Below are positions 6,860 through 47,296 of a stretch of DNA of 64,000 nt, in pieces. The stretch is from positions 250,902-314,901 of the forward strand of contig CAVRXN010000002.1 in the NCBI GenBank assembly GCA_963725235.1. Reading direction: 5' to 3'. This stretch comes from an uncultured bacterium (GTDB taxonomy: Bacteria; Patescibacteriota; Minisyncoccia; UBA6257; 2-01-FULL-56-20). The translations under genes were made by a program, and so were the position numbers. The first letter of the stretch is position 1; every line of letters begins with the position of its first letter. The notes under the pieces are model-generated. The model was not told where the DNA came from, ran no database searches, and saw nothing but the letters and a program-made list of their open reading frames with translations.

Positions 6860-6896
6860 TCGATTTTACCTGATTTTTCAGCATTTCCATAGGGGA

Positions 6897-6926
6897 TTGA
6901 CAAATCGTTGCCAAATGCTATATAAT
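6897..6926 (+). promoter_or_regulatory. Sigma70-like promoter for the DGR target gene
   Basis: TTGACA (6897-6902), 18-nt spacer, TATAAT (6921-6926). AAGGAGG Shine-Dalgarno before ATG 6974. Confidence 0.5.
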
Positions 6927-6973
6927 ATAAGTGTTCTTTAACAACTCTCTACGGAGAAAATTCAACAAGGAGG

Positions 6974-7873
6974 ATGATAACGATGACACCGTCGATTACA
7001 TCCAGCATCACCGAAGGTCAGGCGAAGCAGTATCGCCGTTTTGTCGAGGACGCGACCAAGAATGGTTGCGATCTCGCGCTGCAAGAAATTCCGCTCGATA
7101 AAGACGGATTGCAGAAACTCTTTGAGCGTGGCGACGAGTTCAGCGTGACCATCGCACGAGCAATCGCCGACACGACTCGCGAGTTGTCGCTCAGCAACCA
7201 GTTTGCGAACGAAGAAGTTCGTTCCAGCTGCACCTATCCGAAGAAGTATCGCGTCAGGGACATAATTGGGCAGACGAATGCCCTGCGTCAACTTTTCTCG
7301 GGCGTCGGATTTGCGGATGAGGAACTGGCCCAGCGGCCGCTTCCCGTCGGAGCTGAAGGATGGTTTGCCATCCCGCGCTGGGAAAATATCGCCGCGACTT
7401 ACAATGACGCGTTACAAAAAGTTCTCGCACTCATCAAATCCAAGCGGACATTCTACAATTTCCGTGAGGGCGAGTTGGGCGAGAACCAACTGAAGCAGAC
7501 CGAACGCGCCATTGCCGCATGGAAGAAACTTGGCGAATCGCAGAAAGGCGACATTCTGATTGTTGCGGCGCAATTCGGGTTGCGACATCGGGGACGTTCC
7601 GTCCGCCGCGCTCGCGAGGTGTTCATAGCCAATGAATTCGGCCTCGGCGCTTTCGCATCTGGTATTATGCTGCTCACCCATCCCGAACGGGAAGAGAAGT
7701 GGGAGCAACTCCATATCGACTGCGCCGGAGATGAGTTTAGTCCGGATGCGGGCGGCCGGTTCGTGAGGGCGCCGATCTTCTACTTCAGCGACGACAGGCT
7801 GGAGTTCCGCACCAGCGATGTGGGCAACGCCAACGAGGACGATGGCTCCGCGTCGGGCTTCCTCCCGCAGTAA
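6974..7873 (+). CDS. DGR target (variable) protein, no signal peptide
   Basis: The last 44 codons are the VR that matches the TR. The C-terminus ends GSASGFLPQ. The N-terminal ~250 aa have no recognised motif. Confidence 0.85.
   Translation: MITMTPSITSSITEGQAKQYRRFVEDATKNGCDLALQEIPLDKDGLQKLFERGDEFSVTIARAIADTTRELSLSNQFANEEVRSSCTYPKKYRVRDIIGQTNALRQLFSGVGFADEELAQRPLPVGAEGWFAIPRWENIAATYNDALQKVLALIKSKRTFYNFREGELGENQLKQTERAIAAWKKLGESQKGDILIVAAQFGLRHRGRSVRRAREVFIANEFGLGAFASGIMLLTHPEREEKWEQLHIDCAGDEFSPDAGGRFVRAPIFYFSDDRLEFRTSDVGNANEDDGSASGFLPQ
7738..7871 (+). repeat. DGR variable repeat (VR)
   Basis: 134 nt aligned without gaps to 8222-8355, with 14 differences. 13 of them fall where the TR has A. 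Confidence 0.85.
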
Positions 7874-8221
7874 ATCGCTCCTTGAGATCTCGAATGCTCG
7901 GGCCTTTGATTTTTTCTTTTTGATCCCTTGCATCCGAATTTTTCAGGCCATTCGCACTTATTGCGGGTGGCTTGCTTCTTTTCTATAATTCATTCGAGCT
8001 TAGGCCATTGCGCGGTTGTCTATGGATAGCCGTCGCCGAACTCTCTCTTCAAAAAGAGAAGCCAGAATCCGAACGATTACGATTTTTCGGAGCGTGCTGT
8101 CTTGGGGAGATTACTGCTTTGCTCCTGCCTTGCGCGGATGCTTTTTCCGAAGCTGCCGCCGAATAAGTTCAGGAATGAGAGGCTTGCCTCGAACTCCGGT
8201 GACGTGAATGGGCGGGGGCAA

Positions 8222-8355
8222 TAGTCCGAATGCGGACGGCCAGTTCGTGAAGGCGCCGATCTTCAACTTCAACGACGACAAGCTGAAGTTCAACACCAAC
8301 GATGTGGGCAACGCCAACGAGAACTATGGCTCCGCGTCGGGCTTCCTCCCGAAGT
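8222..8355 (+). repeat. DGR template repeat (TR)
   Basis: Non-coding copy of the VR, rich in AAC codons in the VR reading frame (aac ttc aac gac gac aag ctg aag ttc aac acc aac). Confidence 0.85.
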
Positions 8356-8375
8356 CGCTGCCCCAAGAGATGAGG

Positions 8376-8400
8376 ATGCCCCCGATCAATTCGGGGGCAT
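8376..8400. other. Perfect 10-bp GC-rich hairpin between the TR and the avd 3' end
   Basis: ATGCCCCCGA-tcaat-TCGGGGGCAT. It lies 20 nt after the TR and 7 nt beyond the avd stop. No clean T-run on either strand. Confidence 0.5.
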
Positions 8401-8407
8401 TGCTTCA

Positions 8408-8761
8408 TTACTGCTTTGTTGATCGTATCCATCCACCGATCTGCCGACCGATTTCATCAACGATTGTCTGAAGCGCGAGATACTTCTTTGCGTCGATCGC
8501 TTTCGTCTCTTTCATGAGCCGAATAAAAATGCGGAGAAAATTCAGTTTGATACTTGCACGCTCGAGAACGGCAGTTTTATCACTTCCAACTTTCGGCAAT
8601 TTGCTGGCCGTTAGGATACTTTCTAAGACATCGAGAATAATCAGCTCGCATCGTTCATAGATGGCATATCGGTCCTGTTTCGGAATAAGGTTTCGGTAGC
8701 TATAAAACGTTTTGTAGAGGTCGTAGGTTTGTTTGAAGATGGGTATATCAAAGTCGTCCAT
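8408..8761 (-). CDS. avd: DGR accessory variability determinant (Avd, four-helix-bundle family)
   Basis: 117 aa and helical. N-terminal IPIFKQTYDLYK and C-terminal EIGRQIGGWIRS fit the Avd / 23S-IVS four-helix-bundle pattern. Located between the TR and the RT. Confidence 0.8.
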   Translation of the reverse strand: MDDFDIPIFKQTYDLYKTFYSYRNLIPKQDRYAIYERCELIILDVLESILTASKLPKVGSDKTAVLERASIKLNFLRIFIRLMKETKAIDAKKYLALQTIVDEIGRQIGGWIRSTKQ

Positions 8762-8775
8762 ATAATTATTTTTTA

Positions 8776-9833
8776 ATGAAAATTTATCGCGACCTGTTCG
8801 ATCGTATCATCGCTCTCAAAAACCTATTCACCGCGTGGGAGACATTCAAGCAGGGGAAGAGAAGTAAGATCGATGTCATTGCGTTCGAGCGTGATCTTGA
8901 GCAGAATATTTTTCAGTTGCGACGAGATCTGCAGAGGAAAACGTACAGACATGGTTCGTACGCCGGCTTCTATATTCACGATCCGAAGCAGCGCCATATC
9001 CACAAAGCGGCGGTTCGCGATCGCGTTTTGCATCACGCCGTCTTCTCGGCGATCAATCCGATATTCGAGCCGACTTTTATCCCTACTTCGTTTTCCTGTC
9101 GCGTCGGATTCGGAACGCATAAAGGATTCGAAGTGCTTGTTGGCATGCTTCGGAAATGCGCTCAGAATAATACGCGCCCATGCTTTGTCTTGAAAGCAGA
9201 TATACGAAAATTCTTCGACAGCGTTGACCACGATATTCTACTCGAAATTTTGGCAAAACGGATTCAGGATGAAGACGCGATGTGGCTCTTGCGCGAAATC
9301 GTAAAAAGTTACGTAATTAAACAGAGAAGAGAGAGAGAGAGTTCCAAGTCGAATCCAAAAATGGCATTCCTATCGGTAATCTGACCTCGCAATTGTTCGC
9401 GAATGTCTATATGAATGAGTTTGATCAATTTATTAAGCATGAATTGCGAGTGAAAAATTATGTCCGTTATACCGATGATTTCGTGATCGTAAGCGACCGG
9501 CAAGAATATCTGGAAAAATTATTGCCGCGGATTGCAGAATTCTTACAATCTCGACTATCGCTCATACTACATCCAAAGAAAATCATACTTCGACCGTTTC
9601 ATCAAGGCATCGATTTTCTGGGCTATATAGCTTTACCAAAATATCGATCCATTCGCACGAAAACGAAGCAGAGAATTTTCAGGAAAATTGGCTACCGAAT
9701 CGCTGAATATGAACGAGGCCATCTTTCAAAAGATACGCTGAACCAGGTTTTCCAATCGTATCTTGGGGTTTTATCTCACGCCGATACGTATGAATTACAA
9801 AAGCGACTACTTAATGAATTTCCGTTGGGATAG
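8776..9833 (+). CDS. DGR reverse transcriptase, reading frame interrupted inside an (AG)7 tract
   Basis: Pieces 8776..9384 (frame 1) and 9321/9393..9833 (frame 0). Motifs KADIRKFFDSVDH, GIPIGNLTSQLFANVYMNEFD (DGR-type IGxxxSQ) and RYTDDFVIV (YxDD). Confidence 0.85.
9328..9341 (+). repeat. (AG)7 dinucleotide tract at the RT frameshift site
   Basis: agagagagagagag, preceded by agaga. Both RT reading frames are open only across this tract. Confidence 0.9.
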
Positions 9834-27285: not shown

Positions 27286-27326
27286 CCGGTTTTTTCTTGT
27301 GCTATAATAAAATTTCTAAATCCCGC

Positions 27327-29145
27327 ATGACCCTTCTCTATTCCTATCTGAAGCGCTATCAAAAGCTGTTGTGGCTGACGCTCGTGTTCGCAACGATCAA
27401 CACGGTTTTTTCACTCGTCGATCCGCAAGTCTTCCGGTTGATCGTCGATAATTATGTTTCGCAGATCGGCACGATCTCCCGCGCCGACTTTTTGCGCGGT
27501 GTCGGGCTGCTCCTTGGCGCGAGCGTGGCCGCCGCATTCATCTCGCGCGTCGCGAAAAATTTCCAGCAATATTACGAAAATGTCGTCACGCAACGCGTCG
27601 GCACGGATCTCTACGCCCATAGCGTTGCGCACTCATTCTCGCTTCCGTACGCGATTTTCGAAGATCAGCGCTCCGGTGAACTCCTGCAAAAACTCCAAAA
27701 AGCGCGGCTCGATTCGCAGCAGCTGATCGTCAACTTTGTCGATATCGTCTTCGTCGCGCTCGTCGGCATCGTCCTCGTCATCGCGTACGCATTCTACATA
27801 AACTGGATCATCGGCCTGCTTATATTTCCTTGTCATTCCGATCCTCGGCACCGTTTTATTCTTCATCGGCCGTAAAATCAAGACGATTCAAAAAACCATC
27901 GTCGTCGAATCCGCGAACCTTGCCGGCTCGACGACTGAGACGCTAAGAAATGTTGAGCTCGTCAAAAGCCTAGGACTTGAAGACCAGGAAACAAAACGGT
28001 TGAATGCGGTCAATGATAAAGTGCTGGCGCTCGAGCTGTCGAAGCTAACGTTAATTCGAAAATTAAGTTTCACGCAGGGAACGACGGTCAACGCAATGCG
28101 TTCGGCGATTCTGTTTGCAATGCTGTGGCTGATTTTGATCGGTTCGATTTCGCTCGGTGAGTTTTTGACACTCTGGTTCTATTCGTTCTACATTTTCGCG
28201 CCGCTCGGTGATGTCGGCACGGTTGCCGCGCAGTACCAAGAAGCGAAAGGCAGCTTGGAGAAGCTCGAAGAAATTTTGGATATCAAGTCGGAAGAGAAGC
28301 CGGCTAATCCGGTCGCGATCGGGCAGTTGAAGGATGTTACGTTCGATCATGTCAGTTTTTCATACGGGGAAGCGGCTGTGGCAGCCGGCGGTAAGGATGG
28401 CTTGGTTGTCGCGCTCGCCGATGTTTCGCTCGAGATTCGCGGCGGCGAAGTCATCGCGTTCGCCGGCTATTCCGGTTCCGGCAAAACGACGATGATCAAA
28501 CTGCTCGTCGGGTTATACAAGCCGACCGTCGGAAATGTTTCCCTGAACGGCGTCGATGGTAACAATATCGATTACGACGTCCTGCGCCAGCACATCGGTT
28601 ATGTTTCGCAGGATACACAATTATTCGCCGGCACAATCCGCGAAAACTTGCTGTTCGTAAATCCGGATGCGACTGATGACGCGTGCTGGGAAGCGTTGCG
28701 CAGCGCCGCAGTCGCCGACGTCGCCGATCGCGGCGGCAAAGGACTCGATACGAAAATTGGCGAAGGCGGTTTGAAATTGTCCGGCGGCGAACGCCAGCGC
28801 CTCGCGATCGCGCGCGCGCTCGTTCGTAATCCCGATTTAATAATTTTTGACGAGGCAACGTCGTCACTCGATTCAATAACCGAGCGCTCGATAACCGACA
28901 CGATCAAGGAGATCACCCGTTCACGGCCGAACCTGATTACCGTGATGGTCGCACACCGTCTTTCGACCATCGCACACGCCGACCGTATCTACGTTTTGCA
29001 GAAAGGCAAAATCATCGAGTCGGGCTCGCATGATGCATTATTAAAAAATCATGATGGATTGTATGCGGCGCTGTGGAAAGAGCAGAGTGGTGCGGCTGCC
29101 GAACGTGGCGGCGCGACGGCGGGCGCTATCACCGCTGCGGTATAA
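27327..29145 (+). CDS. ABC exporter (fused permease + ATPase, MsbA-like), interrupted by one frameshift
   Basis: Walker A GYSGSGKTT, signature LSGGERQRLAIARAL, Walker B IIFDEATS. The TMD reads in frame 0 up to about 27825 and continues in frame 1 (open from 27802). The junction is in tatatttcc. Confidence 0.85.
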
Positions 29146-32834: not shown

Positions 32835-33473
32835 ATGCGCATAGGAATCGATTTCGATGATACGATTGCCGCGGCGACCAAGGCAATTATCAAGCTGCAT
32901 AACCGGCAGTACGGGACGAACTATAAATGGGAGGAGGCGACGGATCATCATCTCGAAAATGTTTTGGAGGGAGCCGGAACCAAGGAGGAATGGGAGGCGA
33001 AGCTCAACGAGTTCTTTTCGGCGAAGAATATCGAGCATCTCGATCCGGTTGCGGGCGCGATTCCGGCGATCGACGCACTGAAGAAGGCCGGCCACGAGCT
33101 CTATATCATCACCGCTCGCTCGGACAGTGATGTCGAGGCGACCGAGCTCTGGCTCGCGCGACACTTCTTTTCTTCTTGGCCGACGACGTTCGCCGGCGTC
33201 CACTACGGCCGATCCCGCGACGCAGATCCCACGCGGCGGCGCCTGAAGTCCGCACTCTGCCGCGAACTCGGCATCGAGCTCATGATCGACGACACGCTCG
33301 GCAACGCCCGCGATTGCGCCGAGGCAGGGATCCGCGTGTTGCTGCTGGATCAGCCGTGGAATCAGGTTGGCGGCGCTGGTGCTGGCGAGCCGCCGCTGCC
33401 TGCGGGTGTGGAGCGGGTGAGGGGATGGGAGGAGGTGGTGGAGAGGGTGGTAAATAATTCTCAAAAGACTTAA
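32835..33473 (+). CDS. HAD-superfamily 5'(3')-nucleotidase-like phosphatase
   Basis: Motif I IGIDFDDTI, motif II IITARS, motif IV LMIDD. ATG 32835 lies inside track ORF 32757..33473. Confidence 0.7.
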   Translation: MRIGIDFDDTIAAATKAIIKLHNRQYGTNYKWEEATDHHLENVLEGAGTKEEWEAKLNEFFSAKNIEHLDPVAGAIPAIDALKKAGHELYIITARSDSDVEATELWLARHFFSSWPTTFAGVHYGRSRDADPTRRRLKSALCRELGIELMIDDTLGNARDCAEAGIRVLLLDQPWNQVGGAGAGEPPLPAGVERVRGWEEVVERVVNNSQKT

Positions 33474-33482
33474 AATTCCTGT

Positions 33483-34388
33483 ATGCCAACCGCGACAGGT
33501 TTAAAAAAAGCAAAAATAAATGCGCAAAAGAAGCCTGCAAAATCTTTAGAAAAATTTAATGGTGTTTTTGGTAATCTTAAGGAAAAGATTATGCAAAAAC
33601 CTTATTACGATAATCCAAGTTTTGTTCTCTACAATGGAGATTCTCTAAATATCTTGGCTCAGTTGCCGGAGAATTCAATAGATATGATATTTGCCGATCC
33701 GCCATATAACCTTTCAAATGGAGGATTTTCGGTTCATGCGGGCAAAATGGTCAGTGTAAATAAAGGAGATTGGGATAAAAGCAAAGGTTTCCAAGATGAT
33801 TATGATTTTCACTATAAATGGCTTGAAGCGGCTAGGCGTGTTTTAAAGCCGCATGGAACATTGTGGGTGAGTGGTACTTATCATTCGATTTATCAGTGCG
33901 GTCATGCCATTCAGGCGCTTGGATATCATATTTTAAATGATGTAGCTTGGTTCAAACCGAATGCTGCGCCGAATTTGAGCGCTCGATATTTTACGGCAAG
34001 TCATGAAACATTGATTTGGGCGCGTAAAGATAAAAAAGCAAAACATATCTTCAACTACAATTTGATGAAGAATGGAGATTGGAATGAAGATTTTCTCAAA
34101 AAACCGAATATGCAGATGAGATCGGTTTGGGCGATTGGAACTCCGAAGCCGGCAGAGAAAATTTTTGGCAAACATCCGACACAAAAACCGAGCGCGTTGC
34201 TCAACCGCATCGTTCTTGCGAGTACTAATAAAGGAGATATCATCCTCGATCCGTTCACTGGGAGCTCGACGACCGGTTTGGCGGCTCATCTTCAAGATAG
34301 AAAGTTTATTGGCATCGATACTGAAAAACAATTCTTAGATTTGTCAATAAAACGGTTCGAACAGTTATCCAGTGTTATGCTAGCTTGA
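33483..34388 (+). CDS. Type II DNA methyltransferase (N6-adenine or N4-cytosine, beta class)
   Basis: Motif IV FADPPYN precedes motif I ILDPFTGSSTTG, plus HPTQKP. The true start may be the internal ATG near 33591. Confidence 0.9.
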   Translation: MPTATGLKKAKINAQKKPAKSLEKFNGVFGNLKEKIMQKPYYDNPSFVLYNGDSLNILAQLPENSIDMIFADPPYNLSNGGFSVHAGKMVSVNKGDWDKSKGFQDDYDFHYKWLEAARRVLKPHGTLWVSGTYHSIYQCGHAIQALGYHILNDVAWFKPNAAPNLSARYFTASHETLIWARKDKKAKHIFNYNLMKNGDWNEDFLKKPNMQMRSVWAIGTPKPAEKIFGKHPTQKPSALLNRIVLASTNKGDIILDPFTGSSTTGLAAHLQDRKFIGIDTEKQFLDLSIKRFEQLSSVMLA

Positions 34389-34427
34389 TCTTCTGCCCGA
34401 TTGCTATATATTTGATCCGTACATACC

Positions 34428-34841
34428 ATGCCCCGAGATACTCGAACAGGCGGTGTTCTGGAAGCAATGATTTTGCCGTCTTTGGCTAGGGGCGGTTATC
34501 AAGCTCAATCACAGGTGCAAGTTGGCATCCGGTTGGGCGGTGGTGGCCGGCATTTTGTCGATGCAACGGCTCAGAAGGAAGAAAAGAAATATCTCGTTTC
34601 TTTAAAATGGCAACAAACCTCCGGAACCGCAGAGCAAAAAGTTCCGTTTGAAATTATTTGCTTAATTGATGCTGTCGAAACTCATGGATACGATAAGGCG
34701 TATTTAGTGCTCGGCGGAGAAGGATGGACCTTGAGAGATTTTTATGTTGGAGGTGGGCTGAAGAAATATCTGCCTCATGATAAAGTAGAGGTTATGACGT
34801 TGGAAGGATTTGTGGCGAAGGCGAATAAGGGATTGCTGTAA
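34428..34841 (+). CDS. Putative type II restriction endonuclease (PD-(D/E)XK-like)
   Basis: Lies 39 nt downstream of the MTase on the same strand. HFVD ... VSLKWQ fits a D...(S/E)xK nuclease core. 137 aa. Confidence 0.55.
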   Translation: MPRDTRTGGVLEAMILPSLARGGYQAQSQVQVGIRLGGGGRHFVDATAQKEEKKYLVSLKWQQTSGTAEQKVPFEIICLIDAVETHGYDKAYLVLGGEGWTLRDFYVGGGLKKYLPHDKVEVMTLEGFVAKANKGLL

Positions 34842-34978
34842 TTATTTGACTTTTTATCCTTTGACGAACAGAATGCCACAACACATTATAGAAAGGGCTT
34901 ATAAAACTCATCAACTGAGGCATTTTGTTGTAAATCGTAATAAGATAAACTAAAAGAATATTTTAGGAATTAAAATTT

Positions 34979-37084
34979 ATGATAGACGTAATTCGCGGAG
35001 CTAATAAGAAGGAGAATTCGACGGCACAATTGGTTGAATACCTCCAGAAATATTTTTCATCAGGCACAGAAGCAGTCGTTTATATAGGATATCCCATCTT
35101 AAGCACTGCTGTTGGGGGGATAACACTTGACGCCGTTCTTGTCGCAGAATCTTATGGAATAATCGTTTTTGATTTAGTTGAAGGTACGTCATGCGGTGAT
35201 AGGACCGAGCAGAGAGATCAGTTGTTTGCCAATATGAAATCAAAGCTGATCCAAAACCCTGAACTAATGGAAAAGCGGGACCTCGGAGTTAGTTTAGAAG
35301 TTCTTACTTTTGCTCCTCAGGTAAAAAGTTCAGATGACATATCTGAAGACTTTATTAATACCTTAGATCTTTTATCGAAACGCCTTGATAAAATTAAAAA
35401 TGAGAAAAATGAGAAATATATCAGAAGTCTTATTTCGGTGATACAGGTAGTCACTAAACTTAACAGTTCACGGAGGCGACGTGTAAACAAACCTGATTCA
35501 AGAGGTGCTAAACTGAAAGAGCTTGAGGAATCTATAGCTAATCTGGATAGTAGGCAAAATCGAGCGGTTATCGAAACGGTAGACGGGCCACAGCGTATCA
35601 GGGGATTGGCAGGATCGGGAAAAACAATTATCTTAGCCTTGAAGGCTGCATACTTGCATTCTAGATATCCAGAATGGGACATTGCCATCACTTTTAATAC
35701 TCGATCCCTGAAACAGCAATTTGTTGATTTGGTTACCAAATTTACCATCGAGCAAAAGCGGGAAGATCCCGATTGGACCAAATTGAAGATTCTTCAATCT
35801 TGGGGTAGCCATGCATCAACTGGAATATATTATGAATTCTGTATGGCAAATAACGTGGAACCTCTTGATTATAAAAACGCAAACGCAAAAGCGCGAAATT
35901 TGTCTCCCCTTGGGTACGCCTGCTTAACAGCTTTAAATCATTTGATTGCAAGGAAAATAGAACCTATTCAAAAATACGATGCAATTTTGATAGATGAAGC
36001 TCAAGATTTATCGCCTCTATTTCTAAAGCTTTGTTACAAATTCTTGAAACCACCAAAAAGAATTATTTGGGCATATGATGAGTTACAAAATCTCAGCTTG
36101 TTAAGGATGCAGTCGCCACGGGAATTATTTGGAATTGAACTAAGCAACGACCAAGAAGCTGCCCAGCAAGATATAATACTTGATAGATGTTACCGAAACT
36201 CTCGGCCAGTTCTTGTTACTGCTCATGGCTTAGGTTTTGGAACTGTGCGTGAAGAAGGTTTAGTTCAGATGTTTGACGAGCCGTCGCTTTGGAAGGAGAT
36301 TGGCTATGAAGTAGAAGGGAAACTAGCTCAAAAAAATAAAGTTTCTCTATATAGAACAAAAGTAACCAGCCCACCCTTTTTAGAGGTACACTCTTCTGAG
36401 GATGATTTAATACAATTTCATAAGTTTACAGGCAGAGAAGAAGAAAGTGATTGGATTGCAGAGCAAATAGAAAAGAATTTAAGAGAAGACGAATTAACAA
36501 CTCGTGACATCGTGGTGATTAATTTAAATTCTCTTACGACGAAAGAAGACACTGCCCTTTTGAGGGCAAAACTTCTCGAGCGTGATATAAATAGCCACAT
36601 TGCTGGATTAACAACGTCGCCTGATCAATTCTTCAAAGATGATTCCATTGCGGTGACAGGCATTTATCGTGCTAAGGGCAATGAAGCTGCAATGGTTTAC
36701 GTTATGAATAGCGAATATGCGTATGGAGGAATTGAGTTGATAAAAAAGAGAAATATGTTATTTTCCGCAATTACTCGTAGTAGGGCGTGGGTTCGTGTGG
36801 CCGGTTGTGGATTACAAATGGACGCACTAATTAAGGAGTTTGAAGGTATAAAAAATGCAGGGTTTAGGCTATCTTTCATATATCCAACTCCAGAAGAAAT
36901 GCAGCGAATGAGGTTGATTAATAGGGATCTTACTGAAAATGAAAAAAAGAGGAAACAAAAATCACTTTACGACATTGAACAGCTTACCGCAGCACTTGAA
37001 AGTGGAGATGTTCTCATTGAAGATATTGACCCACAGACAAAGCAAAAATTATCCTTATTACTGAAACAATCAAACGATGAGTAG
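34979..37084 (+). CDS. SF1 (UvrD-like) helicase with an N-terminal NERD-like domain, defence-type
   Basis: Walker A GLAGSGKT, Walker B ILIDEAQD, CYRNSRP, YRAKGNEA, ITRSRAW. The N-terminal ~110 aa are nuclease-related-domain-like. Confidence 0.8.
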   Translation: MIDVIRGANKKENSTAQLVEYLQKYFSSGTEAVVYIGYPILSTAVGGITLDAVLVAESYGIIVFDLVEGTSCGDRTEQRDQLFANMKSKLIQNPELMEKRDLGVSLEVLTFAPQVKSSDDISEDFINTLDLLSKRLDKIKNEKNEKYIRSLISVIQVVTKLNSSRRRRVNKPDSRGAKLKELEESIANLDSRQNRAVIETVDGPQRIRGLAGSGKTIILALKAAYLHSRYPEWDIAITFNTRSLKQQFVDLVTKFTIEQKREDPDWTKLKILQSWGSHASTGIYYEFCMANNVEPLDYKNANAKARNLSPLGYACLTALNHLIARKIEPIQKYDAILIDEAQDLSPLFLKLCYKFLKPPKRIIWAYDELQNLSLLRMQSPRELFGIELSNDQEAAQQDIILDRCYRNSRPVLVTAHGLGFGTVREEGLVQMFDEPSLWKEIGYEVEGKLAQKNKVSLYRTKVTSPPFLEVHSSEDDLIQFHKFTGREEESDWIAEQIEKNLREDELTTRDIVVINLNSLTTKEDTALLRAKLLERDINSHIAGLTTSPDQFFKDDSIAVTGIYRAKGNEAAMVYVMNSEYAYGGIELIKKRNMLFSAITRSRAWVRVAGCGLQMDALIKEFEGIKNAGFRLSFIYPTPEEMQRMRLINRDLTENEKKRKQKSLYDIEQLTAALESGDVLIEDIDPQTKQKLSLLLKQSNDE

Positions 37085-37712
37085 ATTAGCAAATGAAATA
37101 AGAAGTGAGATATCATCCCTGACTCAGCTTTTGACTCAGGAAAGTCTATCTATCGATTCTCGTATTGCGCAACTCCAGATGCGAAATGGTATCTGCGAGG
37201 TGGGATGGTCAAAAAATGGACCCAATATTGCTTTAGCATTAAAAGATATCGGCTATTCGGAGTGTCATAAATATTTTTTTAGCAATCAGCAATATAATTT
37301 AATCTTACCTGACGGCGCGTTACTTCAGTTTCTTTACAGATTCGAAAAAGAGAAATTAATAGAGCATAGGGTTTCTTATATGCCCGCCCCTACAGATTTT
37401 GATGACAATGAGGAATTCGATATTGCTTCGAACGCAGCTCTACCGATTAGAATCGATTTTTCTCCAGATCAAGCTGTGCTCATAAATCACTCTGCGGCTC
37501 ATGTTCATTTGGGACACAATGTAGACTGGCGAATTCCGACTTCGGCTCCCATAACGCCTAAAGATTTTACACTTTTTATATTAAGAAGTTTTTATGCAGA
37601 TAAGCTTTCGCCAAAAATTATAACTGCCCTGTGTCAATCGCGTTCAGCCTTCCCCGAATCCATTGAAGAGATCGAAAAAGAAGCCATATATATTAAAGTA
37701 CCGAGCATTTGA
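37077..37712 (+). CDS. Hypothetical protein translationally coupled to the helicase (possible DUF2290-type partner)
   Basis: The start overlaps the helicase stop by 8 nt (ATGAGTAG). 211 aa. The family assignment rests on the two-gene architecture only. Confidence 0.55.
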   Translation: MSRLANEIRSEISSLTQLLTQESLSIDSRIAQLQMRNGICEVGWSKNGPNIALALKDIGYSECHKYFFSNQQYNLILPDGALLQFLYRFEKEKLIEHRVSYMPAPTDFDDNEEFDIASNAALPIRIDFSPDQAVLINHSAAHVHLGHNVDWRIPTSAPITPKDFTLFILRSFYADKLSPKIITALCQSRSAFPESIEEIEKEAIYIKVPSI

Positions 37713-37811
37713 AAAATCTTTAATGTATGTAGGTTTACAATGAAATAATCTTTTATGAAGAGATTATTCGAAATATTACGGGTTATTAAAACGATTCCGC
37801 ACTCATTTGCT

Positions 37812-37921
37812 ATCTTGTTTCCTCCACCCCCGCACGCCGTGAGCACGGTCGGACGTGATGGGTAAGGTGTTGTGGGCGATGTCGCAACTGCCGGGTCACG
37901 GGGGATTGGTGAGAGGAAGAT
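37812..37921 (+). repeat. GC-rich long-hairpin element, copy C
   Basis: ATCTTgtttCCTCCACCCCCG ... CGGGGGATTGGTGAGAGGaAGAT. A C-rich 5' arm pairs with a G-rich 3' arm, set in AT-rich surroundings. Confidence 0.6.
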
Positions 37922-38008
37922 TTAGATAAATAAAAGGGGGAGTAACCTGGATGGCACTCCCCGGCGGTGACATATTCTTTTTTTGAACAGGATTCACTGC
38001 CATTGAGG

Positions 38009-38173
38009 TTATTTGCGTTTCTCGTCTCGCGCTTTAAACTTCACCTCAACTTTTTCCTTAACCATTTCATGCGCCTTGAAAGAAACAGGGCCGTTCTTGG
38101 TTTCAAACGAAACCCGTATGGGCTCTTTCTTTGGCTTTTCGGCGTAGAAATCAACTAAATGTTTTTTAGCCAT
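38009..38173 (-). CDS. Possible 54-aa lysine-rich protein downstream of lexA
   Basis: Translation MAKKHLVDFYAEKPKKEPIRVSFETKNGPVSFKAHEMV... No clear SD. The opposite-strand track ORF 37967..38158 looks non-coding. Confidence 0.25.
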   Translation of the reverse strand: MAKKHLVDFYAEKPKKEPIRVSFETKNGPVSFKAHEMVKEKVEVKFKARDEKRK

Positions 38174-38236
38174 GGAAATTTTATTAATTTTGGGTAGCTA
38201 CCGTCGACCTTCGCGGTAGATTAATTTCTAGGATAA

Positions 38237-38845
38237 TCATTGGGAGATATTTTTAATAACATCGATGACCACTCCTTGAATTGCGAATCCAGTATTCCCG
38301 CTTCTTACGATAATCGGCTCCATTTTTTTATTTGCTGGTTGCAGGCGAATATGATCTTTTTCTTGGAAGAATGTTTTTAGTGTTGTTTCATAGTTATCGA
38401 TGAGAGCAACAACTTTTTCGCCATTATGCGCGATAGACTGATCTCTAACTAAGATGATGTCGCCATCATTGATATGTTCATCAATCATGCTTTCTCCAAC
38501 AACTTTTAATGCATAGATTCCTTCTAGGGACTGAGGTAATCTACTTCTTGGGACGGCGATAATTTCCTGTCCTTCTGTTATCGCTTCAATCGGCTGGCCC
38601 GCTGCAACTCTGCCAAGTAAAGGTATCTGAATTAAGTGATCTGATTTGATATGGAGAGAGCGTGCTTTATTTATCCCCGTGCCGAGATAGCCTTTCTCGC
38701 GCAATTTTTCTATATGCTCTTGGACGGTTCCTAAAGAGGTGACACCTAAATGATTGGCGATTTCCCTGAGAGATGGAGCTACGCCTCGTTTAGTGATCTG
38801 TATTCCAATAAAATCGAGGATTTCTTTTTGACGTTTAGTTAACAT
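38237..38845 (-). CDS. lexA: LexA-like S24 autopeptidase repressor
   Basis: Winged HTH PSLREIANHLGVTSLGTVQEHIEKL, Ala-Gly cleavage site VAAGQP, Ser nucleophile GESM, Lys in TTLKTF. Confidence 0.85.
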   Translation of the reverse strand: MLTKRQKEILDFIGIQITKRGVAPSLREIANHLGVTSLGTVQEHIEKLREKGYLGTGINKARSLHIKSDHLIQIPLLGRVAAGQPIEAITEGQEIIAVPRSRLPQSLEGIYALKVVGESMIDEHINDGDIILVRDQSIAHNGEKVVALIDNYETTLKTFFQEKDHIRLQPANKKMEPIIVRSGNTGFAIQGVVIDVIKNISQ

Positions 38846-38878
38846 GATGTTTTAATATGGTTAATATTGACCTATGGC

Positions 38879-38907
38879 TTGACTTGCGGGTCATTTACGG
38901 GTACTAT
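38879..38907 (+). promoter_or_regulatory. Sigma70-like promoter of the cyclase operon
   Basis: TTGACT (38879-38884), 17-nt spacer, TACTAT (38902-38907). Confidence 0.45.
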
Positions 38908-38910
38908 CTC

Positions 38911-38939
38911 ATTGTAATTCAGGAATGCTGTTTTGGCAA
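38911..38939 (-). promoter_or_regulatory. Sigma70-like promoter of lexA, overlapping the cyclase promoter
   Basis: Minus-strand TTGCCA (38939-38934), 17-nt spacer, TACAAT (38916-38911). The two -10 boxes are 3 bp apart on opposite strands. Confidence 0.45.
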
Positions 38940-38978
38940 GGAATGATAATTGCTTTATAAAATTAATCAAAAACTAAC

Positions 38979-39800
38979 ATGAATGATTTTGAAGAAAAGC
39001 TTTTCGTCGATGGCGTTTTAGAAATAGTCGATGAAGCCGATAAGAGATACGCGGCAGGTGTATCCATCGAAAAAAAAGATTTTATACCCCTGACGGATTC
39101 TATGCCGCTGGAAACAAATACTTGGTGGAGGGTGGATGACGTGGTGTGCTTGTACATCGACATGAAAGATTCAACCAAGCTATCCGTCCAGCATAAAGAT
39201 AAAGTTGCGGCAAAGATATATCAATATTTTACGGGAACGGCAGTAAAAATTCTGGATCACTTCGGGGCTTCTTATATCGATGTTCGCGGTGACGGAGCGT
39301 TTGGTTTGTTTGACAAAAATAAGATTTATCATGCATTTTCTGCTGCTATAACTTTTAAAACTATCGTTATGAAATATCTCAGCGAGGCCACAAAGGATGA
39401 CGATGTAAAAATTACTTGCCATCTCGGTATGGATATAAAAACTGTTTTGGTTAAGCGAATTGGTATGCGAAAGGTGGCTGGAAAATCAACAAAACAAAAT
39501 GAAGTATGGGCAGGGAAGCCGGTTAATATGGCTGCCAAGCTGGCATCAAAAGGAGATGCTAATCAATTGTTAATTTCCGAGCGGGTGTATTCAATTTTCG
39601 AGAAAGATGGGTCGGATCTAATTTTGTGGACTTGTGGATGTGGCAACATCGAAAAACCAGGCGAAAAAGTTCCGATTTGGAAGAAGATGGAATTAGAATC
39701 ACCGATTTTTGATTTTGCAGAAGCTTATTCCATGGAAAATTGTTGGTGCGAAAGTCATGGTAGCGAGTTTTGTTTTGGCATAATGGATTTGGATAAATAA
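38979..39800 (+). CDS. Class III nucleotidyl cyclase (Pycsar PycC-like), paralogue 1
   Basis: Metal Asp motifs LYIDMKDSTKL and VRGDGAFGLF, GKPVNMAAKLAS (Asn present, Lys where Arg is usual), LLISERVY. Confidence 0.8.
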   Translation: MNDFEEKLFVDGVLEIVDEADKRYAAGVSIEKKDFIPLTDSMPLETNTWWRVDDVVCLYIDMKDSTKLSVQHKDKVAAKIYQYFTGTAVKILDHFGASYIDVRGDGAFGLFDKNKIYHAFSAAITFKTIVMKYLSEATKDDDVKITCHLGMDIKTVLVKRIGMRKVAGKSTKQNEVWAGKPVNMAAKLASKGDANQLLISERVYSIFEKDGSDLILWTCGCGNIEKPGEKVPIWKKMELESPIFDFAEAYSMENCWCESHGSEFCFGIMDLDK

Positions 39801-39807
39801 TACTTAC

Positions 39808-40311
39808 ATGGGAAATACTCACAAAGAAATTACTATTGGGCGCGCAGAAAGCAATCTACAGCGGCAACTAGATTGGATCGGTCGATATGACGCCAGAATT
39901 TCGTTTGTAACGGGCATATGCATAGGTATGATTGGTTTATTGGTCGGTATAGTTCCTGCACCCGATAAGTGGACAACGGTTCTATGTATATCATTTTTTG
40001 CCACTATTGGCTTACTGATCGTGAGTCTTGTCTATGTTTACCTAGGTCAATATCCAAAAACGGATTCACCGAATCAATCCCTTCTTTTCTTTGGCACGAT
40101 TGCCAAGTTAAAACATGATGAATTCAATAAAAATTTTAAAGCAGCTTCAGACGATGATTATTTAGAGGATTTGCTTTCGCAGTGTCATATTAATGCTCAA
40201 ATCTTAAGTAAGAAATTTTATGTTTTTAAAAGAGCCTTGATATTAATGCTAATTGCGGTTGTTCCGTGGGCGATAGCTATTTATATAGTTAAATTGATAC
40301 CAGTGTCATAA
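39808..40311 (+). CDS. Three-TM small membrane protein (candidate PycTM-type effector)
   Basis: 167 aa. TM helices ISFVTGICIGMIGLLVGIV, WTTVLCISFFATIGLLIVSLVYVYL and ALILMLIAVVPWAIAIYIV. There is no room for a CAP-type cNMP-binding domain. Lies 7 nt after cyclase 1 and 4 nt before cyclase 2. Confidence 0.6.
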   Translation: MGNTHKEITIGRAESNLQRQLDWIGRYDARISFVTGICIGMIGLLVGIVPAPDKWTTVLCISFFATIGLLIVSLVYVYLGQYPKTDSPNQSLLFFGTIAKLKHDEFNKNFKAASDDDYLEDLLSQCHINAQILSKKFYVFKRALILMLIAVVPWAIAIYIVKLIPVS

Positions 40312-40315
40312 TCAA

Positions 40316-41023
40316 ATGGATTGGCCCGAAATATTAACAAATGAAGCCGAGGAAATCTTGACGACTAAATGGGATGAACGCGCTGGAAGTGTTGTCCCAG
40401 AATCCGATAGCGTTACCCTTAAGGATGGAGCGGTTAAAATTGATGCTACATTTTTATATGCTGATCTTGCTGGATCGTCGAAATTAGCAAGATTTTGTCC
40501 ATGGCAGACTACTGCAAAAATAATCCGTGCATATCTTTCGTGTTCGGTTCGGTTAATCAAAGCTTATGGAGGAGAGGTTCGTAGTTTTGACGGCGACCGT
40601 GTGATGGGTATTTTTATGGGAGATTTGAAAAATACTTATGCAGTAAGATGTGCACGGGAAATTGATTGGGTGGTAGAAAAGATAATCAATCCGAAAGCCA
40701 AGGAAAAATTTGAATCAGTAAGGAAGAACGGAATTGCAATTCGACATTGTGTTGGAATAGATACAGGAGAAACAGTCGCTGTACGTGCGGGGGTTCGCAA
40801 CAATAACGATCTTATCTGGATTGGGCGAGCGCCTAGCTTAGCGGCAAAACTTTCCGACATTCGCGCCTTTCCATATACTATCTATATAAGCAAAGATATA
40901 TATGGAGTTTTAGGAGCTACGGAAAAAGTTGTGAATAATACGCTGATTTGGGAGGAGGAAAATTTTATCTTCGCTGGTGATAATTTATCTGTTTACAGAA
41001 CTTCGTATTATCGAACTCCTTAA
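40316..41023 (+). CDS. Class III nucleotidyl cyclase, paralogue 2 (divergent catalytic set)
   Basis: LYADLAGSSKL, FDGDRVMGIF, GRAPSLAAKLSD (Ser at the usual Asn position), IYISKDIY. Confidence 0.75.
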   Translation: MDWPEILTNEAEEILTTKWDERAGSVVPESDSVTLKDGAVKIDATFLYADLAGSSKLARFCPWQTTAKIIRAYLSCSVRLIKAYGGEVRSFDGDRVMGIFMGDLKNTYAVRCAREIDWVVEKIINPKAKEKFESVRKNGIAIRHCVGIDTGETVAVRAGVRNNNDLIWIGRAPSLAAKLSDIRAFPYTIYISKDIYGVLGATEKVVNNTLIWEEENFIFAGDNLSVYRTSYYRTP

Positions 41024-41029
41024 TTTTAT

Positions 41030-41168
41030 CTTACCCACCCCTCCCAGCCCCGCACCCGCACCCACCTCCAATCTGCCCACGGCGTTGTGGTAGCGCACGG
41101 TCATCGTCTGCCGCACCCGCCGGGCCCGCGCGTGCGTGGCGGGAGGGGGATTGGGGGAGGGAATTAAG
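41030..41168 (+). repeat. GC-rich long-hairpin element, copy A (contains a G4 motif)
   Basis: CTTACCCACCCCTCCCAGCCCC ... GGGAGGGGGATTGGGGGAGGGaatTAAG. A 55-nt core (41108-41162) matches copy B at 53/55 positions. Confidence 0.7.
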
Positions 41169-42401: not shown

Positions 42402-42430
42402 ATTATACGATAATTTTGACCGAGAAGCAA
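42402..42430 (-). promoter_or_regulatory. Sigma70-like promoter of the 287-aa/82-aa operon
   Basis: Minus-strand TTGCTT (42430-42425), 17-nt spacer, TATAAT (42407-42402). Confidence 0.5.
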
Positions 42431-42445: not shown

Positions 42446-42537
42446 CCTCCCGCCCCTTTCGCCTCATTCACCACCCTGCCGCACCCGCCGGGCCCGCGCG
42501 TGCGTGGCGGGAGAGGGATTGGGGGAAGGATGTTTAG
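42446..42537 (+). repeat. GC-rich hairpin element, copy B
   Basis: CCTCCCGCC ... GGCGGGAGAGGGATTGGGGGAAGGA. The core at 42476-42530 matches copy A at 53/55 positions. Confidence 0.7.
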
Positions 42538-42619: not shown

Positions 42620-43057
42620 GTGGGCATGTCTCAGCCGAACAAGAAGAAGCCGGAAAAGAAGTATCTCTATCTGGTAGATCTTATCTGCCTTGAGAATCTG
42701 GATCCCCCGATTATAATCCGCGGGTATCTCACGGGGGCCAGTAAGTTTTCCCTTTTGAAAAAAGCTATTAGGTGGCGCGACTTCAAGAGGGAGGAATTTA
42801 TGAAGGAAAAAGGGGAAGCGGTTCAAATTGCATCATTCGTTCGTTGGAACGATGATGGTAAGCTAAAGACCGCACCGGATCTTACGGGAGTTGAGAACAT
42901 CGAGGATTTCCTGCGGGTCTTGGATGAGCTGGAAGAGGTGCTAGCGGCAACAGAAGAGTCAGCTCCGCAAGCGGTTCCCGAAGCGTTTCAATCTTTCGAG
43001 AGCCAGATGCAGCAATTTCTCAGCCAATCTTCCGGGCAGTCCGAGGGCAGTGATTAG
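42620..43057 (+). CDS. Hypothetical protein with an acidic C-terminus
   Basis: 145-aa ORF with a GTG start (or ATG 42626). Followed by a strong terminator. Confidence 0.5.
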   Translation: MGMSQPNKKKPEKKYLYLVDLICLENLDPPIIIRGYLTGASKFSLLKKAIRWRDFKREEFMKEKGEAVQIASFVRWNDDGKLKTAPDLTGVENIEDFLRVLDELEEVLAATEESAPQAVPEAFQSFESQMQQFLSQSSGQSEGSD

Positions 43058-44660: not shown

Positions 44661-47296
44661 ATGAAAGACAAAATCATCATCAAAGGTGCGCGGGAACACA
44701 ATCTGAAAAATATCTCGCTTGAATTGCCGCGGGACAAGATGATCGTGTTCACTGGGCTTTCGGGTTCGGGGAAATCGTCGCTCGCGTTCGACACGATTTT
44801 CGCCGAAGGCCAGCGCCGCTATATCGAATCGCTGTCCGCTTACGCGCGGCAGTTTTTGGGCCGCCTCGATAAGCCGGACGTGGACGACATCGAGGGCTTG
44901 TCGCCGGCGATTTCGATCGACCAGAAATCGCCATTCGGCGAATCCGCGCTCGACGGTCGCGACGATCACGGAAATTTACGATTATCTTCGCGTGCTTTTT
45001 GCGCGCGCGGGAAAGCCGTATTGCCCGACGCTGCGGCCGAGAAATCCGCAAACTGACGAACGAAGAGATCGTCGACGTCGCGATCGAGTTCGCGGATGAG
45101 AGTAATGACAGGCAAGAAGCAAGTTGAAGTCGCGGTCGGAAAAAAGCGCATCATCGGCGGAAATTTATTGATCCTGGCGCCGGTCGTCCGCGGCCGGAAA
45201 GGGGAGTATTACCAGATGCTCTATGATTTCCTGAACGCCGGATTCAGCGAAGTGCGCGTCGACGGCAAATATCATTCGCTCCGCGAGCGCGTCGAACTCT
45301 CGCGCTACAAAGCGCACAACATCGATCTCGTCGTCGACCGCATTCCGGGCGGCATGGATTTCAAAGAAAAAGATAATCGGTTGCGCTTGTCCGAAGCGAT
45401 CGAGTCCGGCTTGAAATATGGCGAAGGCGTCGTCACGATCATTGCGAGCGGCACGGTGCAAGAGAAGAAGCGCCGCTGGAACAAAGAGGTTTCGTTGTCC
45501 GCAAAATTCACCTGTCCGAACGACGGCTTTTCGTTCCCGGAAATCGAGCCGCGCCTGTTCTCTTTCAATAGCCCGTATGGCGCATGTCCGGAATGCCATG
45601 GCCTCGGCACGAAAGATTTATGGTCCGAAGAAATTTGTCCGGTCTGCGACGGCAAGCGTCTGCGCGAAGAAAGTTTGAACGTTTTGATCGATGGAAAAAA
45701 TATCGTTACCGTCACGGCATATTCGATCGAGGACGCGCTCGAGTTTTTTAAAAAACTGGAATCATCGTTTTTCGCGCAAAAAAAGAATGCGTCGCTTGCC
45801 GAAGTTGCCGAAGCGCCGCTCCGAGAGATTAAAGCCGATTAAAATTCATGATGGATGTCGGTCTGGAATATCTGACGCTCGACCGCAAAGCGGGGACGCT
45901 CTCCGGCGGCGAAGCGCAGCGAATCCGGCTCGCGTCGCAGATCGGCTCGCGCCTCGTCGGCACGCTCTATATATTAGATGAGCCGACGATTGGCCTGCAT
46001 CAGCGCGACAACGCGAAACTGATCAAAACGCTCCAGGATCTGCGCGATCTCGGCAACACGATCATCGTCGTCGAACACGACGAAGACACGATCCGCGCGT
46101 CGGATTATCTCGTGGACATCGGCCCGGCGGCGGGCGTGCATGGCGGCCAAGTCGTCGCGCAGGGCCCGATCCCGGAAATATTAAAAGATCCTGAAACAAA
46201 ATTCGCTCGACGCTGCAATATTTGCGCGGCAAGAAATTTATCGAGGTGCCGGAAAAGCGGCGGCAAGTCGATTTCAAGAAAATCGAGAGTATCAAAGATC
46301 CGCGGCGCGCACGCAGAACAATTTAAAAGATGTTAACGTCGATATTCCGTTGCGACGCTTCACGGCGGTGACCGGCGTTTCCGGCTCCGGCAAAGTCGAG
46401 TTTGGTCTACGACGTTTTGTACAAAGCGGTTGCGGACAAGCTCAATCGATCAGCGTGAACCGGCTACAAACCGGTCGGCTACAAATCCATCCTCGGCCTC
46501 GAATACATCAAGCGCATCATCAACATCGACCAGGCCGCGATCGGCCGCACGCCGCGCTCGAACCCCGCGACCTACGTCGGCGCGTGGACGCACATCCGCG
46601 ACCTGTTCGCCTCATCCGAAGACGCGCGCGTGCGCGGCTACAAGCCGGGCCGGTTCAGCTTCAACGTTCCCGGCGGCCGCTGCGAAAATTGCGAAGGCCA
46701 TGGCACGATCGCGATCGAAATGCACTTCTTGCCGACGGTTTACGTCACGTGCGACATCTGCAAAGGCAAACGCTTCGACCGTGAAACGCTCGAAGTGGAA
46801 TACAAAGGCAAAAATATTTATGACATCCTCCAGCATGACGGTCGAGGAAGCCGTCAAATTCTTCGAAGATATTCCGTGGCTGTTCGAGAAATTTAAAATC
46901 CTCGAAGAGGTCGGCTTGGGATATCTCGAACTCGGCCAGTCGGCGACGACGTTGTCCGGCGGCGAAGCACAACGGATTAAGCTTTCCGCCGAGCTCGGCA
47001 AGCGCGACACGCGCCGGACGTTATACTTACTCGACGAACCGACGACCGGTTTACATTTCGCCGACATCGACCAACTATTAAAAGTTTTACAGCGCCTCGT
47101 CGACCGCGGCAACACAGTCGTCGTTATCGAACACAATCTCGATGTCATCAAGACCGCCGACTGGGTCATCGACCTCGGTCCCGAAGGCGGCGCGCGCGGC
47201 GGCAAGATCATCGCGACTGGAACGCCGGAAGAGATCGCACGGAAGGCGGGGAGCTTTACGGGGCAGTACTTGCGGAAAGTGTTGCAGAAATCATGA
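44661..47296 (+). pseudogene. uvrA: Excinuclease ABC subunit A, heavily disrupted (about 9 frameshifts plus 1 in-frame TGA)
   Basis: UvrA motifs are spread over three frames. They include [129 protein letters not shown] and [12 protein letters not shown]. Track pieces are 44661..45056, 45096..45842, 45848..46336, 46350..46784, 46630..46896 and 46430..47296. Confidence 0.9.

Follow-up and report, generated by a model that had tools for sequence, protein, structure and literature searches.

A LexA repressor and a Pycsar operon share a predicted operator on a low-GC defence island of a Patescibacteriota genome

Abortive-infection systems kill their host, and how such systems stay silent is a live question. 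It takes a concrete form in the 64-kb stretch of DNA analysed here (64,000 nucleotides, contig CAVRXN010000002.1, positions 250,902 to 314,901; hereafter the window), which comes from an uncultured bacterium of the Patescibacteriota. Within it, lexA, a gene for a self-cleaving repressor, faces a three-gene Pycsar operon (PycC-A, PycTM and PycC-B) across 133 nt: does the repressor control the operon, or does it merely lie beside it? We consider it likely that this LexA, of the type found in the Candidate Phyla Radiation (CPR), represses both lexA and Pycsar through one shared predicted operator, and that an SOS signal licenses Pycsar. As judged from the sequence, Pycsar is probably SOS-inducible at this locus. 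Feature coordinates are collected in Table 1.

By score, domains, cleavage site and catalytic dyad, the lexA open reading frame (ORF) encodes a bona fide member of the LexA family. All hallmarks named in the initial annotation, a winged helix-turn-helix (wHTH), VAAGQP, the Ser of GESM and the Lys of TLKTF, were located as described, the three motifs at residues 80-85, 117-120 and 155-159. The protein scored 185.7 bits against the NCBIfam lexA equivalog TIGR00498 (cut-off 110.95) with residues 2-200 covered, and matched Pfam LexA_DNA_bind (PF01726, residues 2-62, 5.7e-18) and Peptidase_S24 (PF00717, residues 75-194, 1.6e-28). Its top relatives in the PDB are LexA structures, and it aligns to the LexA proteins of E. 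coli and Thermotoga. The alignment to E. coli LexA pairs VAAGQP with VAAGEP, GESM with GMSM and TLK with TVK, placing Ala82-Gly83, Ser119 and Lys157 opposite Ala84-Gly85, Ser119 and Lys156. The closest relatives, at 57-71% identity, were recovered in Parcubacteria-type metagenome bins, and the C-terminal domain is 60-70% identical to that of ordinary CPR LexAs. Both the lexA ORF and the Pycsar operon are far beyond chance.

Known here from its genes, the operon is Pycsar by both defining components, cyclase and effector, with PycTM scoring 50.1 bits against Pfam PF18967 (cut-off 27.2). Among PycC-A homologs C219, C221 and C257 are invariant and H260 is nearly so, C-terminal Cys/His positions that resemble the zinc site of clade D PycC (AnPycC, PMC11224242). 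The homologous cassettes (L081-L091, L174-L177) always encode two cyclase paralogs, A of about 270 aa and B of about 240 aa, and the effector gene sits between or after both cyclases. Solved PycC enzymes are homodimers (PMC11224242), whereas the window Pycsar has two paralogous cyclases around the effector, plus an adjacent LexA. Since two paralogs are always present in this clade, its cyclases may act as a heterodimer.

Table 1 Features of the lexA-Pycsar locus and its surroundings (window coordinates).
Feature	Position	Strand	Description
Low-GC defence island	33483-41023		Type II methyltransferase, PD-(D/E)XK nuclease, helicase + DUF2290, orf54, lexA, Pycsar (PADLOC + Pfam)
Type II restriction-modification pair	33483-34841		Methyltransferase + PD-(D/E)XK nuclease
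Helicase + DUF2290 pair	34979-37712		Helicase 701 aa, PADLOC 1.5e-272
orf54	38009-38173	-	Small 54-aa ORF downstream of lexA; kept with lexA in L092 as a 55-aa homolog
Hairpin/palindrome	38198-38219		22 nt, between lexA and orf54; CTACCGCGAAGGTCGACGGTAG on the lexA strand; terminator-like in the scan
lexA	38237-38845	-	202-aa repressor: N-terminal wHTH + C-terminal S24 self-cleaving domain
lexA, Lys157 codon	38375-38377	-	Active site
lexA, Ser119 codon	38489-38491	-	Active site
lexA, Ala82-Gly83 codons	38597-38602	-	Cleavage site
Pycsar promoter	38879-38907	+	TTGACT (38879)-17-TACTAT (38907); consensus scan; spacer is the predicted operator
Predicted LexA operator	38884-38903		Direct repeat, period 11, TTGCGGGTCAT/TTACGGGTAC; CGGGT cores 38887-38891 and 38898-38902
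Predicted operator, core	38886-38902		GCGGGTcatttACGGGT; CGGGT-N6-CGGGT at 38887-38902
lexA promoter	38911-38939	-	TTGCCA (38939)-17-TACAAT (38911); reads leftward into the predicted operator, 8 nt past the -10 box
pycC-A	38979-39800	+	Pyrimidine cyclase, 273 aa; PADLOC PycC PDLC00763 3.3e-92; Pfam Guanylate_cyc
pycTM	39808-40311	+	Effector with two transmembrane segments (2TM), 167 aa; Pfam PycTM 4e-13; PADLOC 2TM effector 1.3e-40, PycTM 2.4e-36
pycC-B	40316-41023	+	Second, paralogous cyclase, 235 aa; PADLOC PycC PDLC00766 1.7e-85
Second candidate LexA-controlled promoter	42690-42736	+	TTGAGA-16-TATAAT, 2 nt, then GCGGGTATCTCACGGGG
orf85	42800-43057	+	85-aa ORF, host-like composition (GC content at third codon positions, GC3, 0.54)

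A promoter-consensus scan recovered the two divergent promoters proposed earlier, one toward the cyclases and one toward lexA, with their face-to-face -10 boxes 3 bp apart; no other site in 37.6-41.4 kb is as promoter-like as that of lexA (10 of 12 positions matched). Because the core promoters overlap, RNA polymerase at one should exclude the other. The spacer of the Pycsar promoter is occupied by a CGGGT-N6-CGGGT direct repeat, the predicted LexA operator, which also spans about +1 to +20 of the lexA promoter. In the upstream regions of about 35 CPR lexA genes a period-11 direct repeat likewise fills the spacer between -35 and -10, as in TTGACA-TTCGGTttttgTTCGG-TATAAT, with lineage-specific half-sites (TTTCTAT, TTTCGAT, TTCGGT, TCGGG). 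The plus-strand promoter of the window, TTGACT-TGCGGGTCATTTACGGG-TACTAT, follows this CPR lexA grammar in the TCGGG-class register, yet it is aimed at pycC-A. Its operator register equals that of the operators inside the lexA promoters of loci L018, L049, L120 and L135; the autoregulated lexA promoter of L120, for comparison, reads TTGACC-TTCGGGTAATGTTCGGG-TATAAT (TTGACCTTCGGGTAATGTTCGGGTATAAT).

When a promoter-operator matrix built from five other CPR lexA promoters, with the window excluded, was scored over 127,944 window positions, the site at 38879-38907 ranked first (25.1 bits; next 16.2). It ranked third with the 17 spacer (operator) columns alone, and fifth, solely in the expected register, with a general 24-locus matrix. 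The recognition helix of the window LexA, SLGTVQEHIEKL, groups with those of LexAs having CGG-containing half-sites, apart from nearly all close relatives, which carry the helix SVSTAHHHVKAL (STAHHH) and half-sites TTTCGAT or TTTCTAT. The operator-like elements singled out in the initial annotation, TGACC-N16-GGTCA (38868-38893) and the TTAATAT copies (38852-38858, 38861-38867), are present in the sequence; such short symmetry elements are by themselves not beyond chance, and they were rejected as the main operator because L092, which carries the closest ortholog, does not preserve them but does preserve CGGGT-N6-CGGGT. The core of that annotation, one operator for both transcription units, stands on comparative grounds with the CGGGT repeat in place of the elements first proposed, and the comparison supports a single predicted operator, lying inside both promoters, that can control lexA and Pycsar alike.

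L092, a 1.9-kb contig, encodes the closest LexA ortholog (protein P0002, 70% identical), which is also the only other LexA found in the clade with a GTVHEH-type helix; a metagenome scan with LexA returned no further member of this subgroup. On the lexA-sense strand L092 reads TATAAT, 8 nt, ACCCGAAACAAACCCGAA, and the window TACAAT, 8 nt, ACCCGTAAATGACCCG, so that an ACCCG-N6-ACCCG layout 8 nt past the lexA -10 box is common to the two. The opposing promoter of L092, TTGATA-TTCGGGTTTGTTTCGGG-TATATT, keeps its -35 box and the 3 bp between the -10 boxes, while the remaining intergenic spacer has diverged. It drives a 156-aa ORF with two predicted transmembrane segments, not Pycsar. Downstream, the orf54 homolog again follows lexA, and the 22-nt hairpin is identical at 21 of 22 positions (L092 1316-1340) between diverged flanks. 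By sequence, L092 keeps the same predicted promoter-operator module with a different cargo gene.

The association can also be viewed from the Pycsar side. Ten other lineages that encode a PycC-A homolog were sampled, and nine have the same type of cassette; an S24 gene adjoins the cassette in four lineages (seven loci: L088/89, L090/91, L174/175 and L176). Homologous cassettes thus do carry S24 repressors, a co-occurrence on which the earlier proposal had been made to depend. In the first three of these lineages a same-strand gene for a LexA-like wHTH+S24 protein ends 1-4 nt before pycC-A or overlaps it, and in L176 one 114-aa ORF lies between the two (S24 genes at L088 5352-5996, L090 5355-5999, L174 4061-4717 and L176 3923-4624). 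The encoded proteins, of about 214-233 aa, share 57-73% identity among themselves but only 24-28% with the window LexA, and they carry a Ser/Lys dyad and a Cys-Gly cleavage site as in UmuD. From these sequences, one and the same Pycsar clade has been joined by two different predicted self-cleaving repressor families, recruited independently.

In the cases seen, the gene of the cassette-linked S24 family is always the first of the Pycsar operon. Repeated TGTCAAC motifs overlap TTGACA upstream of these genes and may be the operator of that family.

On the lexA side, 22 CPR loci chosen by similarity to the island-borne LexA were inspected for the gene that is transcribed away from lexA across a gap of about 30-250 nt. 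It is a known or candidate defence gene in ten of the 22, a count in which the PDC families are candidates and for which the first ten loci were partly picked by eye; of 14 control ORFs from these loci, each 4-8 kb distant, none is a defence gene (one-sided Fisher p = 0.0025). The divergent genes comprise bSEFIR (L101, 2e-112), a CBASS operon (L014; 1TM effector 6e-60, CD-NTase 1e-56, E2 1e-36), PD-Lambda-5_A (L112, 5e-46), an OLD/AriA-like ATPase (L105, 3e-21), PDC-M50A (L016 and L135, about 1e-45), PDC-S54 (L107, 1e-86), PDC-M48B (L119, 3e-86), PDC-M30A/M41A (L125, 7e-18) and DUF4238 (L099, 8e-15 in PADLOC and 3e-37 in Pfam). The face-to-face promoter pair with one operator recurs at many of these lexA loci, with CBASS, bSEFIR, PDC-S54 and other cargo. 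About 10 nt separate the -35 box of the second promoter (TTGACT) from the start codon of lexA, and transcripts cross the operator toward the cargo; compared with these other CPR loci, lexA and cargo are on swapped sides of the module in the window and L092.

Further observations were made at these loci. In L014 (Doudnabacteria) the CBASS operon (5684-7968, minus strand) is divergent from lexA, and its promoter, TTGACT-17-TACTAT, reads through the lexA operator with the -10 boxes 1 bp apart. lexA is followed by, or fused with, a DNA methyltransferase gene in L006, L007, L018 and L014 and in proteins P0054, P0065, P0070, P0094 and P0112; the fusion in L014 is a 589-aa LexA-methyltransferase ORF (7941-9710) adjoined by a restriction-enzyme-like ORF. 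An exact DnaA-box 9-mer (TGTGGATAA/TTATCCACA) occurs no more than 260 nt upstream of lexA in 24 of 35 CPR loci, where it sits 10-40 nt upstream of the lexA -35 box; of its 43 occurrences in 441 kb, these loci account for 25. It is absent from the 64 kb of the window, and L092 has a degenerate copy only.

How such an arrangement would work can be outlined. In an unstressed cell a LexA dimer would occupy the shared operator, where it would cover the Pycsar promoter from -35 to -10, spacer included, and also block the lexA promoter, from which transcription would begin within the operator. Single-stranded DNA (ssDNA), arising when DNA is damaged or when a phage genome replicates or is degraded, would activate RecA, which would stimulate self-cleavage of LexA at Ala82-Gly83. 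With both promoters freed, the two cyclases and PycTM would accumulate, and new LexA would later restore repression. Phage would activate the cyclases, leading through a cyclic pyrimidine to membrane killing by PycTM, as in other Pycsar systems. The SOS signal would hence license Pycsar without triggering killing; the cyclases would still need their own phage trigger. The comparative evidence favours derepression of the cyclase cassette by a RecA-mediated DNA-damage signal, as the initial annotation suggested; LexA binding, RecA dependence, inducibility and a recA gene in the genome are inferred, as is every step beyond the sequence geometry.

Several observations weigh against this reading. 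An nhmmer profile of 24 CPR promoter-operators misses the window site, which the ungapped matrices do recover, and TTTCGGT, the commonest half-site, is not the one seen in the window, where it reads (G/A)CGGGT. Shuffling of the 133-nt spacer gives P = 0.14 for a 5-mer repeated with period 11, which is not significant by itself, and the window shows no excess of CGGGT-N6-CGGGT when up to one mismatch is allowed (3.2 copies expected, 5 found). The case for the operator therefore rests on comparison rather than on the window alone. No recA is found among the genes of the 64-kb window, and no Pycsar among 160 fetched lexA loci, the first 80 of which were checked explicitly. Finally, there is no adjacent S24 gene in six of the ten lineages with a PycC-A homolog (L081/82, L083/84, L085/86, L087, L177 and the viral L173, a distant relative and the only one found on viral contigs). 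Such S24-less cassettes usually follow restriction-modification genes or sit near serine recombinases.

These six lineages would fit a CPR lexA locus that is simply a defence hot spot, where LexA autoregulates only and Pycsar is transcribed from its plus-strand promoter independently of LexA, or constitutively expressed at a low level. So would the lack of synteny around lexA across 80 loci, the many unrelated genes that fill the divergent slot, and the horizontally acquired look of the island, lexA included. We nevertheless regard an accidental neighbourhood as unlikely. The predicted operator is itself the 17-nt spacer of the Pycsar promoter, in the register of autoregulated lexA promoters, so binding that represses lexA would hardly spare Pycsar, and an unrelated S24 family has been recruited independently to the same cassette. 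Two S24 families on one Pycsar clade, together with recurrent defence genes opposite lexA, point to selection rather than accident.

Even if LexA does control the operon, the signal might be another one. Some S24 repressors of the phage CI-like kind are inactivated by anti-repressors rather than by RecA, and no recA was found among the window genes; infection could then induce Pycsar directly, by way of a phage anti-repressor or protease, or of self-cleavage that is spontaneous or depends on pH. The equivalog score, the intact Ala-Gly site and Ser/Lys dyad, and the close similarity of the C-terminal domain to ordinary CPR LexAs make this, in our estimate, quite improbable. We give still less credence to a CI-type repressor of an integrated phage or mobile element, with the cyclases as cargo expressed together with lytic or transfer genes. 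The protein does match PHROG phrog_4 'transcriptional repressor' (3.7e-22), several homologous cassettes lie beside serine recombinases, and direct repeats occur at or near the island borders; against this, its score marks the protein as a LexA equivalog rather than a CI, its nearest relatives are CPR chromosomal LexAs, and 33.4-41.1 kb contains no integrase, recombinase or phage structural gene. This makes a CI-type origin highly improbable, and repression of both units by LexA, relieved through RecA, is the reading that we prefer.

The predicted operator is not confined to the lexA-Pycsar spacer. GCGGGT-N5-ACGGG has exactly two matches in the 64 kb, at 38886 and 42720, the second lying in an intergenic region 3.8 kb from the first, outside the low-GC island and about 65 nt upstream of orf85. 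A second exact copy at another promoter makes it probable that this LexA acts on at least one further target, away from its own locus. A single housekeeping lexA with SOS boxes elsewhere, which had been set against a role in controlling the cassette, is accordingly not an alternative to it.

The second-best match of the five-promoter matrix (42402-42430, minus strand, TTGCTT-CTCGGTCAAAATTATCG-TATAAT, 16.2 bits) shares its intergenic region with the second exact copy and faces a 287-aa ORF; it is only half operator-like. A weak match upstream of uvrA (44529, 15.2 bits) was discounted as half an operator only.

Genes divergent from lexA in Gram-positive bacteria include yneA, sosA and chiZ, which encode SOS cell-division inhibitors. 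There lexA has its control region in common with a gene for a small membrane protein, and the slot in L092 is likewise taken by the two-transmembrane ORF; the window slot, by contrast, holds a three-gene immune operon, and other CPR slots hold CBASS, bSEFIR, PD-Lambda-5 and other defence genes. With the LexA/SOS system of E. coli the window repressor shares domain architecture, cleavage site and catalytic dyad, and its predicted operator would likewise lie in the promoter of its own gene. It departs from classical LexA in that the gene sits on an apparently horizontally acquired island and that the unit opposite it serves abortive infection rather than repair or cell division. The alphaproteobacterial LexA box, GTTC-N7-GTTC, is a period-11 direct repeat like the predicted window operator (PMC8565304). 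The half-site (G/A)CGGGT was not found among described LexA boxes, in a comparison that excludes the published Patescibacteria SOS motif.

Closer in function are CapH+CapP, CapW/BrxR and CapK+CapS, DNA-damage-responsive regulators whose genes lie upstream of CBASS, Pycsar, BREX and DISARM operons, and which follow the same logic of an adjacent repressor inactivated upon DNA damage or by ssDNA (PMC13373217, PMC9122601). Because such regulators beside Pycsar have already been described, the regulatory logic is not new in principle, and the initial annotation overstated its departure from constitutive Pycsar expression. By analogy the window LexA resembles these systems in logic without being a member of them: it joins wHTH and S24 in one polypeptide and is presumably RecA-dependent, and neither it nor its neighbours contain a CapP metallopeptidase, a CapH partner, a WYL domain or a kinase recognised by Pfam or PADLOC. 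What is new at a Pycsar locus is LexA in the predicted role of regulator. A link between LexA and defence genes has been drawn, in general terms, for regulatory networks (bioRxiv 10.64898/2025.12.14.694197), and our literature search found no paper joining LexA or S24 repressors to Pycsar or to CPR defence islands. Beside the three known dedicated families of DNA-damage regulators, the locus suggests a fourth and simpler solution, in which the operon is plugged into LexA/RecA via a shared operator. It also yields a concrete predicted operator sequence for a LexA subgroup of an uncultured phylum, and it bears on immunity control in ultra-small episymbiotic bacteria that lack many regulators.

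A wider generalization we hold only tentatively and think rather doubtful: that lexA, the face-to-face promoter pair and the single operator form a portable CPR control module, in which RecA/LexA would, in these minimal genomes, mainly license abortive infection and travel with defence islands instead of being a fixed repair regulator. Its cargo would be Pycsar in the window and, at other loci, CBASS, bSEFIR, PD-Lambda-5, OLD-family and several candidate systems.

The island that carries lexA and Pycsar is 7.5 kb long and has a GC content of 0.39-0.41, compared with about 0.52 outside. lexA shares this AT-rich composition, as had been noted (GC3 0.35, against 0.31-0.41 in the other island genes, orf54 at 0.47, and 0.52-0.71 in flanking genes), and the whole island, lexA included, looks horizontally acquired. 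An Rfam scan of 37700-39100 found no RNA element. orf54 has no match in Pfam, PHROG or PADLOC, and neither it nor orf85, orf287, orf82, orf101 or the 156-aa ORF of L092 has an informative family match.

Close to the island, a 55-nt GC-rich direct repeat (41108-41162 and 42476-42530, 96% identical) flanks a 1.37-kb segment with two minus-strand ORFs of 82 and 287 aa, and a 62% copy lies at the left edge of the island (33382-33436). These repeats could be attachment-site duplications from serial insertions. Similarity of the window ORF at 28000-29145 to genes at 13 lexA loci was rejected as synteny, being generic ABC-ATPase similarity; the ABC transporter to which this ATPase belongs appears to be split, with its membrane part at 27297-27875. 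Further downstream, uvrA (44661-47296) is likewise split, into at least four ORFs in two frames (44661-45056, 45096-45842, 45848-46336 and 46430-47296), and is either a pseudogene or the product of local assembly errors.

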